Virus record (IMG/VR): IMGVR_UViG_2681813273_000009
Length of the DNA: 8,933 bases
Reading direction: 5' to 3' (one strand)
DNA from: a virus
Taxonomy: Duplodnaviria > Heunggongvirae > Uroviricota > Caudoviricetes
In this document: piece after piece, positions 1-7,110 of the stretch
Layout of the letters: the number at the start of each line of letters is the position of its first letter
Position numbering within the stretch: position 1 is the stretch's first letter
Notes under the pieces: generated by a model
The model's input: the letters and a program-made list of their open reading frames with translations, nothing else
Database searches by the model: none
Told to the model about the DNA's origin: nothing
Made by a program: the position numbers and the translations under genes

Positions 1-1
1 G

Positions 2-271
2 GGAAAAATATCATCAGATGGCTGCTTAAAAAAAGAACAAATGGTAGTGTCCGCTATTGCCAGTACACCTCATCCATCACCGAAAAAAATTGGCTTTTAC
101 ACCATTGGCGATAAAAGCATTTACCTGTATGACCTACGCCGCATGGATGAAATCATGGAGGCTCTTGATAATCGTTCGTCGATGGATTGGTGTGTTGCTG
201 TTCATGATATGAATGCAGGGTTTGATGAAAAGATTTTGTTCCCCTCATCAGTTGAAAGCACTGCGGGTTAA
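2..271 (+). CDS. Hypothetical phage protein, 3' end of an ORF that appears to begin upstream of the window
   Basis: Frame is open from position 2 to TAA at 269-271; the first in-frame ATG (41) has no Shine-Dalgarno. A strong RBS for the next gene follows immediately. Product not recognised. Confidence 0.35.
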   Translation, partial: GKISSDGCLKKEQMVVSAIASTPHPSPKKIGFYTIGDKSIYLYDLRRMDEIMEALDNRSSMDWCVAVHDMNAGFDEKILFPSSVESTAG

Positions 272-281
272 GGAGTAACAC

Positions 282-449
282 ATGACCACTATTACCAAAG
301 AACGTATTGAATTGTTCATTAAAAACCCGCTTGAAAACGGGCTTACCCGTGGTGAACAAATGGAACTGGCACGGATTGCGCTGGCATCGCTGGAAGCAGA
401 GCCGGTTGTGTTCTGGTTTGAAAAATATCAAGAAGGGGCTACGGCATGA
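282..449 (+). CDS. Small hypothetical protein, 55 aa ([55 protein letters not shown])
   Basis: Not in the ORF track (under 60 aa). AAGGAG at 270-275 sits 6 nt upstream of ATG 282. Its stop overlaps the next start (ATGA at 446-449), suggesting translational coupling. Shares the N-terminal MTT.T.E and IAL.SL.AEP motifs with the next ORF. Confidence 0.5.
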
Positions 450-653
450 CGACTTTTACCAGAGAGCAGTTAATAGCTCACGCAGAGGAGACTATTGAAG
501 CACAGAGACTGNNNNNNNNNNNNNNNNNNNNNNNNNNNNNNNNNNNNNNNNNNNNNNNNNNNNNNNNNNNNNNNNNCATGACGACTTTTACCAGAGAGCA
601 GTTAATAGCTCACGCAGAGGAGACTATTGAAGCACAGAGACTGTGCATACCGG
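445..653. repeat. Direct repeat flanking a 65-nt N-run: 445-511 is identical to 577-643 (period 132 bp, in frame)
   Basis: Read directly: catgacgacttttaccagagagcag...cacagagactg occurs before and after N 512-576. Consistent with an unmerged contig overlap or a 132-bp tandem duplication of the gene's 5' end. Confidence 0.8.
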
Positions 654-922
654 GCACAATCGACCATGACATCATCCGCACATATAAGATGGATATTGCT
701 GTTCTGGAAATCGCACTGGTATCGCTGGCAGCAGAGCCAGCCGGTAAATTGCATGAATACAAACCAGTGGGATATCAGCGTCTGGTCGATGAGTTAACCA
801 TGCTGGTAAAGCAGTTAACCTGGCAACTGAGGAAAGCGAAGCCAGACTGCAAATTACCGGATAAGGCGATGAGTTATCTGGAGCGGAACGGACTGATAAG
901 CGTGGAGGATATTTTACGATGA
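578..922 (+). CDS. Hypothetical phage protein, about 114 aa, paralogous to the preceding 55-aa ORF
   Basis: ORF track 446..922 reads through the N-run; the copy after the gap (ATG 578) is the uninterrupted version. Stop TGA 920-922 overlaps the next ATG (919). Confidence 0.55.
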
Positions 923-1002
923 CCTGGCCTGAAGCATTAACAACGGTAGGAATTGCGATGGCGGTGGCGCTGGTGGTGTATTCGATTTGCCGCTGGGGAT
1001 AA
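919..1002 (+). CDS. Putative 27-aa single-pass membrane peptide ([27 protein letters not shown])
   Basis: ATG 919 overlaps the upstream stop (ATGA); hydrophobic core flanked by charged or aromatic residues. Very short, so uncertain. Confidence 0.3.
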
Positions 1003-1009
1003 AAACGGT

Positions 1010-1037
1010 TTGCGGGAAAAGGAGAGTTAAGTAGAAT
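1010..1037 (+). promoter_or_regulatory. Candidate sigma70 promoter for the hok/mok mRNA
   Basis: TTGCGG (1010-1015), 16-nt spacer, TAGAAT (1032-1037); lies about 120 nt upstream of mok, matching the long leader typical of hok mRNAs. Confidence 0.3.
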
Positions 1038-1099
1038 TGCAGCGGGTGCTTGAGGCTATCTGTCTCAGGCATGAACACCAAAAGGCAGATAGAGAAAAG

Positions 1100-1165
1100 C
1101 CCCAGTTAACATTACGCGTCCGGCAAGACGCTTAACATTAATCTGAGGCTCAATCTATGAACGGC
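1100..1165 (-). ncRNA. Putative Sok-like antisense RNA (boundaries approximate)
   Basis: Inferred from hok/sok architecture: the antisense RNA is encoded opposite the mok start and leader. A minus-strand promoter-like TTGCCT-17nt-TAACCT lies at about +1200..1172 and a minus-strand hairpin gcgtc/gacgc near 1118-1133. Not demonstrated. Confidence 0.25.
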
Positions 1166-1369
1166 AAATCTAGGTTAGCCTCTTACGTGCCGAAAGGCAA
1201 GGAGAAGCAGGCTATGAAGCAGCAAAAGGCGATGTTAATCGCCCTGATCGTCATCTGTTTAACCGTCATAGTGACGGCACTGGTAACGAGGAAAGACCTC
1301 TGCGAGGTACGAATTCGAACCGGCCAGACGGAGGTCGCTGTCTTCACAGCTTACGAACCTGAGGAGTAA
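1157..1369 (+). CDS. Mok-like in-frame N-terminally extended reading frame of the hok locus (70 aa)
   Basis: ORF 1157..1369 contains the hok frame and shares its stop; this matches the annotated mok/hok in-frame arrangement of chromosomal hok loci. Confidence 0.55.
   Translation: MNGKSRLASYVPKGKEKQAMKQQKAMLIALIVICLTVIVTALVTRKDLCEVRIRTGQTEVAVFTAYEPEE
1214..1369 (+). CDS. hokD: Hok/Gef-family type I toxin, 51 aa (MKQQKAMLIALIVICLTVIVTALVTRKDLCEVRIRTGQTEVAVFTAYEPEE)
   Basis: Internal ATG 1214 preceded by AGGAG (1200-1204). The TM helix followed by TRKDLCEV.IR.G..EVA.F.AYE is the Hok family signature; the sequence appears to match HokD/RelF of Qin-like prophages, from memory. Confidence 0.85.
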   Translation: MKQQKAMLIALIVICLTVIVTALVTRKDLCEVRIRTGQTEVAVFTAYEPEE

Positions 1370-1437
1370 GAGACCAGGCGGGGGAGAAATCCCTCGCCAC
1401 CTCTGATGGGTCAGGCATCCTCAATGCACCCACACTT

Positions 1438-1470
1438 AACCCGCTTCGGCGGGTTTTTGTTTTTATTTTC
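1438..1470 (+). terminator. Rho-independent terminator at the hok mRNA 3' end
   Basis: Stem aacccgc/gcgggtt with UUCG tetraloop (1445-1448), followed by tttttgtttttatttt. Confidence 0.6.
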
Positions 1471-1589
1471 AACGCGTTTGAAGTTTTAGATGGTGCCGGA
1501 ATAGAATCAAAAATACTTAAGTAGCGCGCAGGGAGAAGAGGGATGGACCCCGAACAGGGGAGTGCTATTTATCTGGAAGGATTCTGTTG

Positions 1590-1871
1590 ATGAAAATCGA
1601 AGAATTACGTGAAATTTTTAGTGAAGATGGCCTCTATACTGTGCGCGTTGAGAATGGCGCTATTGTCAGCCACTGCCTTCCAGACTACACAATTCTGATA
1701 ATTCAGCCGTCTTTGCCAGCAGGCACGGGCGGCGCTCTCACGCATTTAAATCTGATTGGTACCAGCATCCCCCATGCACTGAAGAACAGGCCGAATGGCT
1801 CATTCAGTGTTACCGCAGGCGCGGATGCGAGGTTAAAAAAGCCCTTAGCCTCGACTACCGTCACTGGATAA
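1590..1871 (+). CDS. Hypothetical protein, 93 aa, in the position held by rem in the Qin prophage
   Basis: ORF track 1587..1871; ATG 1590 preceded by GGAAGGA. Lies between hok and the DUF968 gene. Product not recognised; the rem equivalence is positional only. Confidence 0.4.
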   Translation: MKIEELREIFSEDGLYTVRVENGAIVSHCLPDYTILIIQPSLPAGTGGALTHLNLIGTSIPHALKNRPNGSFSVTAGADARLKKPLASTTVTG

Positions 1872-1946
1872 TCTCCGTCAGGCTCCCTTACTCCGAACGG
1901 CCAACGCGTCCGTCCCGCACATTCCAGCAACGGATCTGGAGGTAAT

Positions 1947-3005
1947 GTGCGGGTATTACTTCGACCTGTTCTGGTACCGGAACTCGGTCTGGTTATCGTT
2001 AAGCCAGGCCGTGAATCAATGTCAGCATTCCATAACGGCAGAATACTGGTGGAGCCGGAACCAAAAAGCATGCGTAATCTGCCGTCCGGGGTCGTTCCTG
2101 CCGCTCGCCAGCCGCTGGTGGAAGACAAAACATTGCTGCCGTTTTTCAGTAACGCACGGGTGATTCGTGCTGCTGGTGGTGCTGGTGCATTGTCTGACTG
2201 GCTGTTGCGCCATATTAAATCCTGCCAGTGGCCACACGGCGATTATCATCACAGCGAAACCGTCATTCACCGTTATGGTACCGGCGCAATGGTGTTGTGC
2301 TGGCACTGCGACAACCAGCTGCGTGACCAGACATCCGAATCACTCGAGCAACTTGCTCATCAAAACCTGTCAGCATGGATGATTGACGTCATCGGTCACG
2401 CAATAAGCGGTACGCAGGAGCGTGAATTATCTCTGGCTGAATTATCCTGGTGGGCGGTCCGCAATCAGGTGGCGGACGCGCTACCGGAAGCGGTATTACG
2501 TCGTTCGCTGGGGTTGCGTGCGGAAAAAATTCGCTCTGTGTACAGTGAAAGCGACATCATACCGGGAGAGCAGACAGCCACCAGCATACTGAAGCAGCGC
2601 ACAAAAAATATTGCGTTACTGCCTCACGTCCACCAGCAACAGAACCCACCACAGGAAAAGACGGTGGTCAGCATTGCCGTTGATCCGGAGTCACCGGCTC
2701 AGTATCTCCAGCGCCAGAAATCACAACGGGAAGAGATGCCTGTATACACGCGCTGGGTAAAAACGCAGAAATGCATGACGTGTGGCAATCAGGCAGATGA
2801 TCCGCATCACATCATTGGTCATGGACTGGGAGGGATGGGAACAAAGGCTGATGATTTGTTTGTTATTCCGTTATGCCGTAAATGCCGTAACGAACTACAT
2901 GCCGGAGTAAAAGATTTTGAAGAGAAACACGGCAGTCAGCTGTTGTTGCTGATTCGTTTTTTAATGCACGCGAGAAATTCGGGTGTTCTGAAGTGGAAAG
3001 CATAA
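1947..3005 (+). CDS. DUF968-family phage protein (YdfU-like) with a C-terminal Cys/His cluster, possible HNH or NinG-like nuclease
   Basis: 352-aa ORF; GTG 1947 with GGAGG at 1938-1942 (alternative ATG at 2019). C-terminus has CMTCGNQADDPHH...CRKCRNELH. Lies immediately upstream of rusA, as ydfU does in Qin-like prophages. Confidence 0.7.
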   Translation: MRVLLRPVLVPELGLVIVKPGRESMSAFHNGRILVEPEPKSMRNLPSGVVPAARQPLVEDKTLLPFFSNARVIRAAGGAGALSDWLLRHIKSCQWPHGDYHHSETVIHRYGTGAMVLCWHCDNQLRDQTSESLEQLAHQNLSAWMIDVIGHAISGTQERELSLAELSWWAVRNQVADALPEAVLRRSLGLRAEKIRSVYSESDIIPGEQTATSILKQRTKNIALLPHVHQQQNPPQEKTVVSIAVDPESPAQYLQRQKSQREEMPVYTRWVKTQKCMTCGNQADDPHHIIGHGLGGMGTKADDLFVIPLCRKCRNELHAGVKDFEEKHGSQLLLLIRFLMHARNSGVLKWKA

Positions 3006-3386
3006 ATGACCGAGCGCATAGAATTTGTTTTACCTTACCCGCCGACGGTGAACACTTACTGGCGTCGTCGTGGCAGCACATATTTTGTATCAAAAGCCGG
3101 GGAGCGTTATCGCCGGGCAGTGGCGCTTATTGTTCGCCAGCAGCGGCTGAAATTAAGCCTGTCCGGAAGGTTGGCAATAAAAATTATTGCAGAACCACCG
3201 GATAAGCGCCGCCGTGACCTGGACAATATTCTGAAAGCGCCGCTGGATGCGCTGACGCATGCGGGGTTGCTAATGGACGATGAGCAGTTTGATGAAATCA
3301 ATATCGTTCGTGCTCAGCCAGTATCTGGTGGACGTCTGGGGGTGAAGATTTATCCCATAATGCTTGAAGGGCAGGTCAAAAAATGA
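3006..3386 (+). CDS. rusA: Crossover junction endodeoxyribonuclease RusA (Holliday junction resolvase)
   Basis: 126-aa ORF with LPYPPTVNTYWRRRG near the N-terminus and DLDNILKAPLDALTHAGLLMDDEQF, recognised as RusA family. ATG directly follows the upstream TAA; its stop overlaps the Q start (ATGA). Confidence 0.9.
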   Translation: MTERIEFVLPYPPTVNTYWRRRGSTYFVSKAGERYRRAVALIVRQQRLKLSLSGRLAIKIIAEPPDKRRRDLDNILKAPLDALTHAGLLMDDEQFDEINIVRAQPVSGGRLGVKIYPIMLEGQVKK

Positions 3387-4128
3387 AACTGGAAGATTTA
3401 CCGAAATACTACTCCCCAAAATCCCCCGGCCTGACTGATGCATCGGCCTCAACGTCGAAAGATGCGCTGAGTATCACTGATGTGATGGCCGCGCAGGGCA
3501 TGACACAGAATCGGGCTGAGATGGGGGTTTCTGCGTTCCTTGGGAAAATGGGCATTAGTATGAATGACAGAGAGCGGGCAACAGAATTGCTGACAGAATA
3601 TGCACTCAGTCGGTGTGATCGCGTGGCGGCGTTAAGAAAACTCCCGGCAGAAATAAAACCGGCAGTGATGCGTATTATGGCTTCGTATGCGTTTGAAGAT
3701 TATGCCCGTAGCGCGGCGAGCAAAAAACAGTGCCCCTGCTGTCACGGAAAAAAATTTATTGAAAGCGAGGTTTTTACAAACAAGATCCAGTATCCGGATG
3801 GTAAGCCGCCGGTATGGGCAAAGTGTACGAAAGGTGTGTATCCGTCTTACTGGGAAGAATGGAAAAAAGTCAGGGAGGTGGTAAAAGTTGCCTGTCCGGA
3901 GTGTGGCGGAAAGGGTGAGGTTTCCACCGCCTGTAAGGATTGCCGTGGGCGTGGTGTCGCCATTCATCGTGAAGAGTCGGTAAAACGTGGTATGCCTGTT
4001 ATCAGAGACTGCCAGCGTTGTGGTGGTCGTGGCTATGAAAGACTACCATCAACGGAGGCATTTAATGCTATATGCGAGGTGACAAACCAGATAACACGCG
4101 CGTCATGGGAAAAAACAGTTAAGAAATT
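3383..4128 (+). pseudogene. Q-like antiterminator, upstream copy, truncated after about 248 codons at the repeat junction
   Basis: Same reading frame and near-identical protein to the 4411..5265 ORF until position 4128; the track ORF 3383..4414 then continues in frame into the rusA 3' sequence. Confidence 0.5.
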
Positions 4129-4129
4129 N

Positions 4130-4414
4130 GAGCGTTATCGCCGGGCAGTGGCGCTTATTGTTCGCCAGCAGCGGCTGAAATTAAGCCTGTCCGGAAGGTT
4201 GGCAATAAAAATTATTGCAGAACCACCGGATAAGCGCCGCCGTGACCTGGACAATATTCTGAAAGCGCCGCTGGATGCGCTGACGCATGCGGGGTTGCTA
4301 ATGGACGATGAGCAGTTTGATGAAATCAATATCGTTCGTGCTCAGCCAGTATCTGGTGGACGTCTGGGGGTGAAGATTTACCCCATAATGCATGAAGAGC
4401 AGGTCAAAAAATGA
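4130..4414 (+). pseudogene. rusA 3' fragment (second copy), lacking its own start
   Basis: Encodes ERYRRAVALIV...IMHEEQVKK, equivalent to RusA residues ~33-126; no upstream rusA start in this copy. Confidence 0.5.
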
Positions 4415-5265
4415 AACTGGAAGATTTACCGAAATACTACTCCCCAAAATCCCCTTGCCTGACCGATGCATCGGCCTCAACGTCAAAAGATGCGCTGAGT
4501 ATCACTGATGTGATGGCCGCGCAGGGCATGACACAGAATCGGGCTGAGATGGGGTTTTCTGCGTTCCTGGGGAAAATGGGCATCAGTATGAATGACAGGG
4601 CGCGGGCAACAGAATTACTGGCAGATTATGCACTCAGTCGGTGCGATCGTGTGGCGGCGTTGAGAAAACTTCCGGCAGAAATAAAACCGGTAGTGATGCG
4701 CATTATGGCTTCGTACGCTTTTGAGGATTATGCCCGCAGCGCAGCGAGTAAAAAGCAGTGCCCTTGTTGCTATGGGGAAAAATTTATTGAAAGCGTAGTT
4801 TTTACAAACAAGGTCCAGTATCCGGATGGTAAGCCGCCGGTATGGGCAAAGTGTACGAAAGGTGTGTATCCGTCTTACTGGGAAGAATGGAAAAAAGTCA
4901 GGGAGGTGGTAAAAGTTGCCTGTCCGGAGTGTGGCGGAAAGGGTGAGGTTTCCACCGCCTGTAAGGATTGCCGTGGGCGTGGTGTCGCCATTCATCGTGA
5001 AGAGTCGGTAAAACGTGGTATGCCTGTTATCAGAGACTGCCAGCGTTGTGGTGGTCGTGGCTATGAAAGACTACCATCAACGGAGGCATTTAATGCTATA
5101 TGCGAGGTGACAAACCAGATAACACGCGCGTCATGGGAAAAAACAGTTAAGAAATTTTATGATGCGCTGGTGACCCGGTTTGATATTGAAGAAGCATGGG
5201 CTGAGCGGCAGTTAAAAAAGGTAACTAGGTTGATTTTTCCGGAATCTGTGGTAAATTCGTCATAA
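4411..5265 (+). CDS. Putative late-gene antiterminator Q-like protein (284 aa) with DnaJ-type CxxCxGxG zinc-finger repeats
   Basis: Assignment rests on position (directly after rusA, directly before a PR'-like promoter and tR' terminator). Contains CPCCYGEK, CPECGGKG, CKDCRGRG, CQRCGGRG. Confidence 0.6.
   Translation: MKLEDLPKYYSPKSPCLTDASASTSKDALSITDVMAAQGMTQNRAEMGFSAFLGKMGISMNDRARATELLADYALSRCDRVAALRKLPAEIKPVVMRIMASYAFEDYARSAASKKQCPCCYGEKFIESVVFTNKVQYPDGKPPVWAKCTKGVYPSYWEEWKKVREVVKVACPECGGKGEVSTACKDCRGRGVAIHREESVKRGMPVIRDCQRCGGRGYERLPSTEAFNAICEVTNQITRASWEKTVKKFYDALVTRFDIEEAWAERQLKKVTRLIFPESVVNSS
5230..5257 (+). promoter_or_regulatory. PR'-like late promoter overlapping the 3' end of Q
   Basis: TTGATT (5230-5235), 16-nt spacer, TG-n-TAAATT extended -10 (5249-5257); followed about 45 nt later by an intrinsic terminator, as expected for a Q-modified short transcript. 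Confidence 0.4.
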
Positions 5266-5305
5266 CTATGGGCGTTTTATGCCTGACGTTAGAAGAGTTT
5301 CTACA

Positions 5306-5330
5306 ACCCGCCGCCGAGCGGGTTTTTTAT
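5306..5330 (+). terminator. tR'-like rho-independent terminator (copy A)
   Basis: Stem acccgc/gcgggt with loop cgccga, then tttttat. Confidence 0.6.
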
Positions 5331-5502
5331 NNNNNNNNNNNNNNNNTATGATGCGCTGGTGACCCGGTTTGATATTGAAGAAGCATGGGCTGAGCGGCAG
5401 TTAAAAAAGGTAACTAGGTAACAAGGTTGATTTTTCCGGAATCTGTGGTAAATTCGTCATAACGATGGGCGTTTTATGCCTGACGTTAGAAGAGTTTCTA
5501 CA

Positions 5503-5527
5503 ACCCGCCGCCGAGCGGGTTTTTTAT
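5503..5527 (+). terminator. tR'-like rho-independent terminator (copy B, after the N-run)
   Basis: Same hairpin and T-run as copy A. Confidence 0.6.
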
Positions 5528-5645
5528 GACTGAAATCGCGTCAGTACAGTAAACGCGCTGGTGGCGGTGAATACCTGTCTTTCAGCTTGCTGGCTTTTTC
5601 GACAAGAGTTATTGGTGTGTCACGTTAACCGGAAAAGGAAAAGAC

Positions 5646-5843
5646 ATGCTAAAACAGCAGGATATGACAGAAACCGCCAGAGTGGTGTTTAATGAATTAA
5701 GCGTTACCGAACCGGCGACAGTCGGGGAGATAGCGCAGAATACTTACCTTTCACGCGAACGCTGCCAGTTAATACTGACCCAGCTGGTTATGGCGGGTCT
5801 GGCAGACTATCAGTTCGGTTGTTACAGACGCCTTCCGCAGTGA
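5646..5843 (+). CDS. Small hypothetical protein, 65 aa, possible helix-turn-helix DNA-binding protein
   Basis: AAGGAAAAG 6-8 nt upstream of ATG 5646; segment TVGEIAQNTYLSRERCQLILTQLV resembles an HTH; stop lies inside a terminator hairpin. Confidence 0.5.
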   Translation: MLKQQDMTETARVVFNELSVTEPATVGEIAQNTYLSRERCQLILTQLVMAGLADYQFGCYRRLPQ

Positions 5844-5857
5844 AGGCTTTTTTATTT
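5830..5857 (+). terminator. Rho-independent terminator following the small ORF
   Basis: Stem gccttc/gaaggc (5830-5835 and 5842-5847), loop cgcagt, then tttttt a ttt. Confidence 0.6.
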
Positions 5858-5872
5858 GTGGTAAATGGGCGG

Positions 5873-5899
5873 CTGGTGGGTGTTAGGGGCACCCACCAG
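5873..5899. promoter_or_regulatory. Perfect 10-bp inverted repeat (ctggtgggtg-ttagggg-cacccaccag)
   Basis: Read directly; not followed by a T-run, so more likely a protein-binding site or RNA structure than a terminator. A second palindrome CTGCTTT-gcgca-AAAGCAG lies at 5943-5961. Confidence 0.4.
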
Positions 5900-5993
5900 C
5901 CATCTGCTCATGCGTTGGGTTCACAAGCAAACCTCAGGCCCACTGCTTTGCGCAAAAGCAGAATGAGCCTATCAGAGACAGGCTTAATGATCC

Positions 5994-7070
5994 ATGCTTA
6001 ATACTGTAAAAATATCCAGTTGTGAGTTAATCAACGCCGACTGCCTGGAATTTATCCGGTCGTTACCCGAAAATTCTGTTGACCTGATAGTCACGGACCC
6101 GCCNNNNNNNNNNNNNNNNNNGTACTTTAAAGTGAAGCCTGAGGGCTGGGATAACCAGTGGAAGGGCGACGATGATTACCTGAAGTGGCTGGACCAGTGT
6201 CTGGCGCAGTTCTGGCGGGTGCTGAAACCTGCCGGAAGTCTTTACCTGTTCTGTGGTCATCGCCTGGCATCTGATATCGAAATCATGATGCGTGAACGCT
6301 TCAGTGTGCTGAACCATATTATCTGGGCGAAGCCGTCCGGACGCTGGAACGGATGCAACAAGGAAAGCCTGCGGGCGTATTTCCCCGCCACAGAGCGCAT
6401 TCTGTTCGCGGAACATTATCAGGGGCCGTATCGTCCGAAAGATGCCGGGTATGCGGCGAAGGGCAGTGCACTGAAACAGCATGTGATGGCCCCGCTGATT
6501 TCTTACTTTCGTGATGCGCGAGCTGCCCTGGGGATAACGGCAAAACAGATTGCAGATGCCACAGGAAAGAAAAACATGGTGTCGCACTGGTTCAGTGCCG
6601 GTCAGTGGCAGTTGCCGAATGAAAGCGATTATCTGAAATTACAGGCGCTGTTTGCCCGGGTGGCAGAAGAGAAGCATCGGCGTGGTGAACTGGAAAAGCT
6701 CCACCACCAGCTGGTGGATACGTATACCTCACTGAACCGGCAGTATGCGGAGCTGCTGAGTGAATATAAACATCTGCGGCGGTATTTTGGCGTGACGGTG
6801 CAGGTGCCGTATACCGATGTGTGGACGCATAAACCGGTGCAGTTCTATCCCGGGAAACATCCGTGCGAAAAACCGGCAGAAATGCTGCAGCAGATAATCA
6901 GCGCTAGCAGTCGTCCGGGTGACCTGATTGCAGATTTTTTCATGGGGTTGGGTTCGACAGTGAAAGCGGCACTGGCGCTCGGGCGTCGTGCAATTGGCGT
7001 TGAGCTGGAGACTGAACGTTTTGAGCAGACGGTTCGGGAAGTACAGGATTTAGTCAGCCAGAACGGATGA
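5994..7070 (+). CDS. Beta-class DNA amino-methyltransferase (N6-adenine or N4-cytosine), orphan
   Basis: 358-aa ORF; N-terminal DLIVTDPP then an 18-nt N-run over the rest of motif IV; C-terminal AdoMet-binding motif I DLIADFFMGLGST. Motif order IV then I indicates beta class. No restriction endonuclease gene nearby. Confidence 0.85.
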   Translation: MLNTVKISSCELINADCLEFIRSLPENSVDLIVTDPXXXXXXXYFKVKPEGWDNQWKGDDDYLKWLDQCLAQFWRVLKPAGSLYLFCGHRLASDIEIMMRERFSVLNHIIWAKPSGRWNGCNKESLRAYFPATERILFAEHYQGPYRPKDAGYAAKGSALKQHVMAPLISYFRDARAALGITAKQIADATGKKNMVSHWFSAGQWQLPNESDYLKLQALFARVAEEKHRRGELEKLHHQLVDTYTSLNRQYAELLSEYKHLRRYFGVTVQVPYTDVWTHKPVQFYPGKHPCEKPAEMLQQIISASSRPGDLIADFFMGLGSTVKAALALGRRAIGVELETERFEQTVREVQDLVSQNG

Positions 7071-7110
7071 TATTGAAGAATTAATTACGCGTCGTTATTA
7101 TGCGGCTCCC

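Follow-up and report, generated by a model that had tools for sequence, protein, structure and literature searches.

In the late-control modules of lambdoid prophages, a RusA resolvase and a Q antitermination protein (family PF03589, with a zinc-finger motif of the DnaJ type) are found together with a DUF968/HNH-like protein, an N6/N4 DNA methyltransferase, and phage tRNA genes. Such a module is also carried by the defective prophages of the Qin/DLP12 type in K-12. The window studied here, the whole 8,933-nt stretch of viral DNA that was analyzed, is in its real content two ordinary and widespread modules of this kind. As deposited, the sequence also shows a 1028-bp “tandem repeat” of rusA and Q with a Q-RusA fusion ORF at its center. 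We consider it very probable (about 96%) that the repeat and the fusion arose as an artefact of assembly and scaffolding in a draft genome of Shigella sonnei built from short reads, and that the fusion gene is absent from the cell.

As the record is written, positions 3102-4128 are repeated directly at 4130-5157, with a period of 1028 and 96.3% identity, a similarity far above chance level; the 1028-bp rusA-Q repeat at 3102-5157 reported in an initial annotation is present in the deposited sequence. The copies mismatch at 38 of 1027 positions, every one between 3353 and 3785, a zone corresponding to RusA residues about 116-122 and Q residues about 15-135, so the blockwise divergence noted at that time is also correct. 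Across the boundary between the copies runs an ORF of 343 aa (3383..4414; this and all genes and segments below are on the plus strand) that reads Q(1-248), X, RusA(33-126). It matches both the Antiterm (PF03589) and RusA (PF05866) Pfam domains, the RusA fragment covering PF05866 profile positions 23-123 only. The claim that the period is not a multiple of three, and yet the Q frame is brought into the rusA frame at 4129, holds arithmetically, because the ATGA overlap puts Q in frame +2 of rusA ((3383-3006) mod 3 = 2) and 1028 mod 3 is also 2, giving (3006+1028-3383) mod 3 = 0. The junction itself is exactly the single “n” at 4129, where the record reads ...AAGAAATT[N]GAGCGTTATCG..., and since this is a placeholder, the period and the reading frame both hang on one placeholder character. 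A single lower-case “n” is the mark that SSPACE uses for an unresolved negative gap.

When the exact fusion protein was looked up in the public collection, one contig was returned, CXEN01000162.1 of GCA_001258415.1, an 8,933-bp WGS scaffold to which the window is identical over its entire length. The window is therefore the whole of a small scaffold from a draft assembly. WGS records with neighboring CX.. prefixes (CXBN, CXBR, and CXBV) hold S. sonnei genomes that come from Holt et al. 2012 (PMC5447701), and from these neighboring prefixes we infer that CXEN01000162.1 was made by the Sanger Institute pipeline. The pipeline consists of Velvet, SSPACE, and 120 GapFiller iterations; its authors note that SSPACE and GapFiller are greedy and can make false joins, and the 299 S. 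sonnei assemblies in their set had the highest mean contig count there, 405 (PMC5320598). Velvet, SSPACE, and GapFiller, as run at the Sanger Institute, are likely the source of this scaffold.

The window holds six N runs, at 512-576, 4129, 5331-5346, 6104-6121, 7474, and 8499-8504 (65, 1, 16, 18, 1, and 6 positions long, respectively). At five of the six, flanking repeats begin or end precisely at the N boundary, with the sequence after the Ns recurring upstream and the sequence before them recurring downstream, and each of the window's seven direct-repeat families borders an N run. Repeats placed in this way are what overlapping contig ends look like when a scaffolder has left them unmerged, and not what five independent tandem duplications would produce.

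We split the window at its N runs into seven segments, S1 to S7, and compared these with finished S. sonnei chromosomes. Complete E. coli genomes were set aside as a reference: the best whole-window matches (strain 131) reached only ~94% identity, which allowed no assignment of segments to loci, and the S. sonnei chromosomes were found by looking up exact proteins. S1, S2, S4, S5, and S7 belong to one locus, here called locus A, and S3 and S6 to another, locus B. The segment order in the scaffold is A, A, B, A, A, B, A, the same as the order of their start coordinates on locus A.

S1 (1..511), a locus A contig, is 100% identical to positions 2187-2697 of L017, the locus A sequence of CP104423.1. 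Its last 67 nt (445-511) recur at 577-643, beyond the 65 Ns at 512-576, and the real relation between S1 and S2, which starts at L017 2631, is a 67-nt overlap. S2 (577..4128), also a locus A contig, carries hok, rem, a DUF968 gene, rusA, and Q codons 1-248, and is 100% identical over 3552 nt to L017 2631-6182 as well as to L012, the locus A sequence of CP146298.2. The “n” at 4129 joins S2 to S3 (4130..5330), the “copy 2” of the repeat, a locus B-type contig placed between S2 and S4 that is 98.2% identical to the locus B sequences L003-L008 and 96.1% to locus A. On locus A, one base (T) lies between the end of S2 (L017 6182) and the start of S4 (L017 6184); in the finished chromosomes, the base at the position of the “n” is T in locus A and C in locus B. 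Sixteen Ns (5331-5346) separate S3, from locus B, from S4 (5347..6103), from locus A, which is 100% identical to L017 6184-6940 and holds the 3′ end of the locus A Q gene (5347-5421), a 65-aa ORF, and the 5′ end of the methylase gene. A terminator-like hairpin is located at 5502-5521, in S4. The 18 Ns at 6104-6121 fall within the methylase gene, where the flanks adjoin in finished genomes: S4 ends at L017 6940 and S5 starts at 6941, and this run is therefore a gap with a true length of 0. S5 (6122..7473), 100% identical to L017 6941-8292, comprises the remaining methylase gene and three tRNA genes of locus A. A second single “n”, at 7474, joins S5 to the locus B contig S6 (7475..8498), which is 100% identical to L004, L007, and L008 at 10925-11948; on locus B, S3 ends at 10920 and S6 starts 4 nt downstream of that end. 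Beyond the six Ns at 8499-8504, S7 (8505..8933) is 100% identical to locus A of CP104423.1, and its first 132 nt equal the last 132 nt of S5 (7342-7473).

Two finished chromosomes carrying both loci show how these are arranged. In CP104423.1, locus A lies at about 1.860-1.867 Mb and locus B at about 2.534-2.536 Mb; in CBDDMI010000001.1, the corresponding positions are about 1.823-1.829 Mb and about 2.491-2.493 Mb. The loci are ~660 kb apart in these two chromosomes, with one rusA and one Q each. Locus A in finished chromosomes has the gene order hok-DUF968-rusA(126 aa)-Q(273 aa)-methylase with tRNAs downstream, and locus B is a remnant beside an IS21 copy, rusA(124 aa)-Q(284 aa)-tRNAs, with an ipaH-type gene a few kb away.

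The genes of the window fit this arrangement. The locus A rusA (3006..3386, 126 aa) is intact and genuine: it matches PF05866 over profile positions 1-123 of 124 (E=1.5e-16, 61.6 bits vs. a cutoff of 22.8), and the exact protein adjoins a 273-aa Q in many finished genomes. Along with the 352-aa DUF968 protein of S2, this RusA is encoded exactly at locus A in finished chromosomes. The locus A Q stops in the window after codon 248 (3383..4128). Joining 3383-4128, a T, and 5347-5421 gives the intact 273-aa Q (822 nt) of the finished locus A, and so this gene is cut by the contig end only, not in the cell. The locus B Q (4411..5265, 284 aa) is genuine, and by its family profile match (PF03589, E=7e-55, 183.6 bits vs. 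a cutoff of 26.7) is a putative phage antitermination protein Q. Finished S. sonnei chromosomes, among them those of 53G (HE616528.1) and 75/02 (CP019689), whose organism names are confirmed in PMC5447701, encode an identical protein downstream of one 124-aa RusA. An 8-nt deletion in this allele loses the allele A stop codon and adds 11 aa. A simple scan for a sigma-70 promoter downstream of Q found none, and we therefore claim no PR'-like promoter.

The segment ends fall at differences between the two loci or in sequence that they share. An alignment of locus A with locus B (L017 vs. L004) contains identical stretches of up to 343 nt, and S2 ends on the final base of the 343-nt run. S4 resumes, in locus A coordinates, at the base immediately after the “n” position, and S3 begins one base after a G/T difference between the loci. 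Runs of 69-130 nt without any A/B difference contain the remaining segment ends, including the end of S5, the end of S6, and the start of S7.

With the Ns, the overlaps, S3, and S6 omitted, the locus A segments can be put back together. S1, S2 (644-4128), a T, S4, S5, and S7 (8637-8933) give 6,403 nt that occur without a mismatch in both L017 and L012. The locus B segments can be rejoined in the same way: S3 (4381-5330), TGCG, and S6 give 1,978 nt with mismatches to locus B at 5157 and 5175 only, where S3 has A-type bases. The results expected of an artefact were all found, namely repeat boundaries coinciding with Ns, an exact reconstruction, interleaved segments from another locus, and contig ends at paralog differences or within shared runs. 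Two results expected of a tandem duplication were absent: there is no contiguous, base-resolved junction, 4129 being an “n”, and instead of a single run-on into unique DNA, S3 is followed by an N run and then by its own last 173 nt, with 5158-5330 appearing again at 5347-5527.

We also searched for the junction in complete genomes, using a 55-mer centered on the “n” and designed so that neither half alone passes the E-value limit. None of 5,426 complete E. coli genomes matched it. As a control, a 55-mer over the natural continuation of Q (5130-5184) found matches in 1,243 of them, and the rusA-Q segment was matched in about 3,100. A 401-nt junction query (megablast) seemed to give thousands of full-coverage matches and was rejected, as each listed match consists of two permuted pieces over ~1027 nt of a single-copy locus; SCU-176, for example, has a single rusA (381 nt) and a single Q (822 nt). 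A natural Q-RusA fusion in independent contiguous assemblies was found neither by the exact-protein look-up in the public collection nor by the junction 55-mer in complete genomes. We infer that reads spanning the junction are absent from the source isolate.

The headline reading of the initial annotation, one of the two that it offered, is that a real tandem duplication of rusA-Q produced a genuine Q(1-248)-RusA(33-126) fusion gene and that the “n” is a mere unresolved base call. The fusion ORF is indeed open and in frame in the record with both Pfam domains, and the copies, 3.7% different, are no trivially doubled string. However, such a history would require four further “tandem duplications” within these 9 kb, all of them with an end exactly at an N run; S2, one nucleotide, and S4 are contiguous at 100% identity in finished chromosomes, and S3 and S6 adjoin at the other locus. 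The junction is found in none of the 5,426 complete genomes, and the fusion protein is known solely from CXEN01000162.1, all of which makes this reading exceedingly improbable. It is just as hard to credit that unequal recombination between the isolate's two prophage modules created a true duplication, and with it a chimeric antiterminator-resolvase, while the other N-flanking repeats are unrelated artefacts. Allelic contigs could also come to lie side by side if the culture was mixed or contaminated by a second strain. Both alleles, however, lie at separate loci of single finished S. sonnei chromosomes, with identities of 100% for A and about 99.9-100% for B (S6 and the B-type part of S3), and no second strain is therefore needed; we regard a mixed sample as very improbable.

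The composition of S3 raises a different question, since the join could be artefactual and S3 nevertheless a faithful contig of a real recombinant locus, either a locus B that received an A-type rusA 3′ half by gene conversion or a third copy of rusA-Q. S3 is a mosaic, A-type over its first 251 nt (4130-4380), B-type over 4381-4813, with A-type bases at 5157 and 5175, and B-type again over 5227-5330. All 20 discriminating sites within 4130-4341 are A-type and all 38 within 4381-4813 are B-type, and lambdoid prophages are known to recombine. Yet the types alternate A/B/A/B, with the two A-type bases standing alone amid shared or B-type sequence. The switch points fall in identical runs of at least 39 nt, longer than the 30-mer of GapFiller, the first change from A to B lying inside a 39-nt identical run (A 5368-5406). 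Locus B is non-mosaic in six finished S. sonnei genomes, and among complete E. coli genomes no match to S3 exceeds 98.2%. A real recombinant locus is thus unlikely, and we favor a chimeric consensus as the source of the mosaic over a gene-converted locus B in the isolate.

The assembly artefact very probably arose as follows. The strain has two related lambdoid prophage late-control modules, loci A and B, hundreds of kb apart. Short reads are unassignable across the stretches that A and B share, and contigs therefore broke at A/B differences or inside shared runs. The scaffolder then chained contigs of both loci into one 8.9-kb scaffold, alternating between them in the order seen here, and placed N placeholders where overlapping contig ends could not be merged. 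“Copy 1” of the repeat is the right end of the locus A contig S2 and “copy 2” the locus B-type contig S3, with the “n” at 4129 as their join; a one-character placeholder together with the natural ATGA overlap of rusA and Q opened the fusion ORF. GapFiller works with k=30 and a majority vote at a ratio of 0.7; for a gap to be closed, the extensions from its two sides must overlap, and the insert must agree with the estimate of the gap size (PMC3446322). Its base-by-base extension by majority vote would halt at paralog differences, and could hop between loci over identical runs of at least 30 nt, which may have generated the mosaic in S3.

The initial annotation had offered two explanations of the repeat. 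Its real segmental duplication with a novel fusion is not supported; its other explanation, that two prophages were joined into a chimera, is essentially right, except that the join was very probably made by assembly software and not in the cell. It had itself pointed to rusA-Q as single copies at two prophage loci as the observation that would refute a duplication, and this is what finished S. sonnei chromosomes contain, with segment identities of 98-100%. Too little weight was given there to the “n” at the junction and to the pattern of repeats and Ns that recurs at 512-576, 5331-5346, 7474, and 8499-8504.

The Q-RusA fusion has no biological significance, and its worth is as an example for quality control. 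Of the ORFs in the scaffold, at least three are spurious, and all three are among the genes called on the record: a frame distorted over the 65-N run, the 343-aa Q-RusA “fusion”, and a methylase of 358 aa in which six residues are X. Such ORFs can reach protein databases as orphan architectures. A simple screen for this class of artefact is to ask whether the sequence after an N run recurs just before it.

Compared with known systems, the window resembles two. Its genes follow the order hok-rem-DUF968(ydfU-like)-rusA-Q(PF03589)-methylase-tRNAs of the lambdoid late-control module in E. coli and Shigella prophages, with the same domains: RusA PF05866, Antiterm PF03589 with a DnaJ-type CXXCXGXG zinc finger, DUF968, and N6_N4_Mtase, along with the ATGA overlap of rusA and Q. 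It differs in that the modules of the finished genomes examined have one rusA and one Q per locus, whereas the second copy in the window comes from another locus. As a scaffold, it is like the gap-flanking duplications and false joins of the SSPACE/GapFiller type in its N-bounded repeats, its odd small N runs including single “n” characters, its contig ends at paralog differences, and its interleaved contigs from paralogous loci. It is also like them in being a small scaffold of an IS-rich species with highly fragmented assemblies, and from artefacts of this type the window shows no difference in kind.

Segment S3 (4130-5330), which lies between two segments of locus A and holds the Q allele of locus B, the second of two related prophage modules, carries bases of both loci in an alternating A/B/A/B pattern, and the points at which it switches from one to the other fall within identical runs of at least 39 nt. 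S3 is probably a chimeric consensus built from reads of both paralogous loci; alternatively, the pattern may reflect real gene conversion in the source isolate. The tRNA cluster, which seemingly occurs twice in the window (7111-7360 and 7508-7760), is likewise doubled by the interleaving of contigs from the two loci. Locus A encodes tRNA(CAT), tRNA-Arg(TCG), and tRNA-Arg(TCT). Of these, only tRNA(CAT) and tRNA-Arg(TCT) are present in locus B, where a degenerate remnant occupies the expected place of the middle tRNA.

Runs of N placed at the joins also affect individual genes. An N6/N4 DNA methyltransferase gene (within ORF 5994-7070) is broken by an 18-N run at 6104-6121, the two sides of which are directly adjacent in finished chromosomes; the 18 N are therefore six spurious in-frame codons, and the protein is 358 aa as deposited with the Ns, compared with 352 aa without them. 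Near the window start, a 65-N run (512-576) is bordered on both sides by an exact 67-nt duplication (445-643), and its flanks overlap one another in finished genomes. The 158-aa ORF at 446-922, with 22 X residues, came from a mechanical ORF listing that read through this run and is spurious; the real gene is 578-922 as called (114 aa).

Relative to the Q of locus A, the Q of locus B has an 8-nt deletion (TAACAAGG; 5219-5265 vs. 5408-5421), which eliminates the stop codon and extends the protein by 11 residues (LIFPESVVNSS), to 284 aa as opposed to 273 aa. This 284-aa allele is conserved among finished S. sonnei genomes. Each Q stop codon is followed, some 40-80 nt further downstream, by a strong terminator-like hairpin (5305-5324 and 5502-5521) made up of AACCCGCCGCCGAGCGGGTT and then a T run. 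This placement would suit the terminator read through by Q, but a simple scan for sigma-70 consensus promoters found none downstream of Q.

Upstream of the DUF968 gene are a Hok/Gef-family toxin gene (1157-1369) and a Rem-family (PF27490) ORF (1590-1871). Both are ordinary prophage content, and the K-12 Qin prophage has its Hok/Gef toxin, Rem, and DUF968 genes in matching order.
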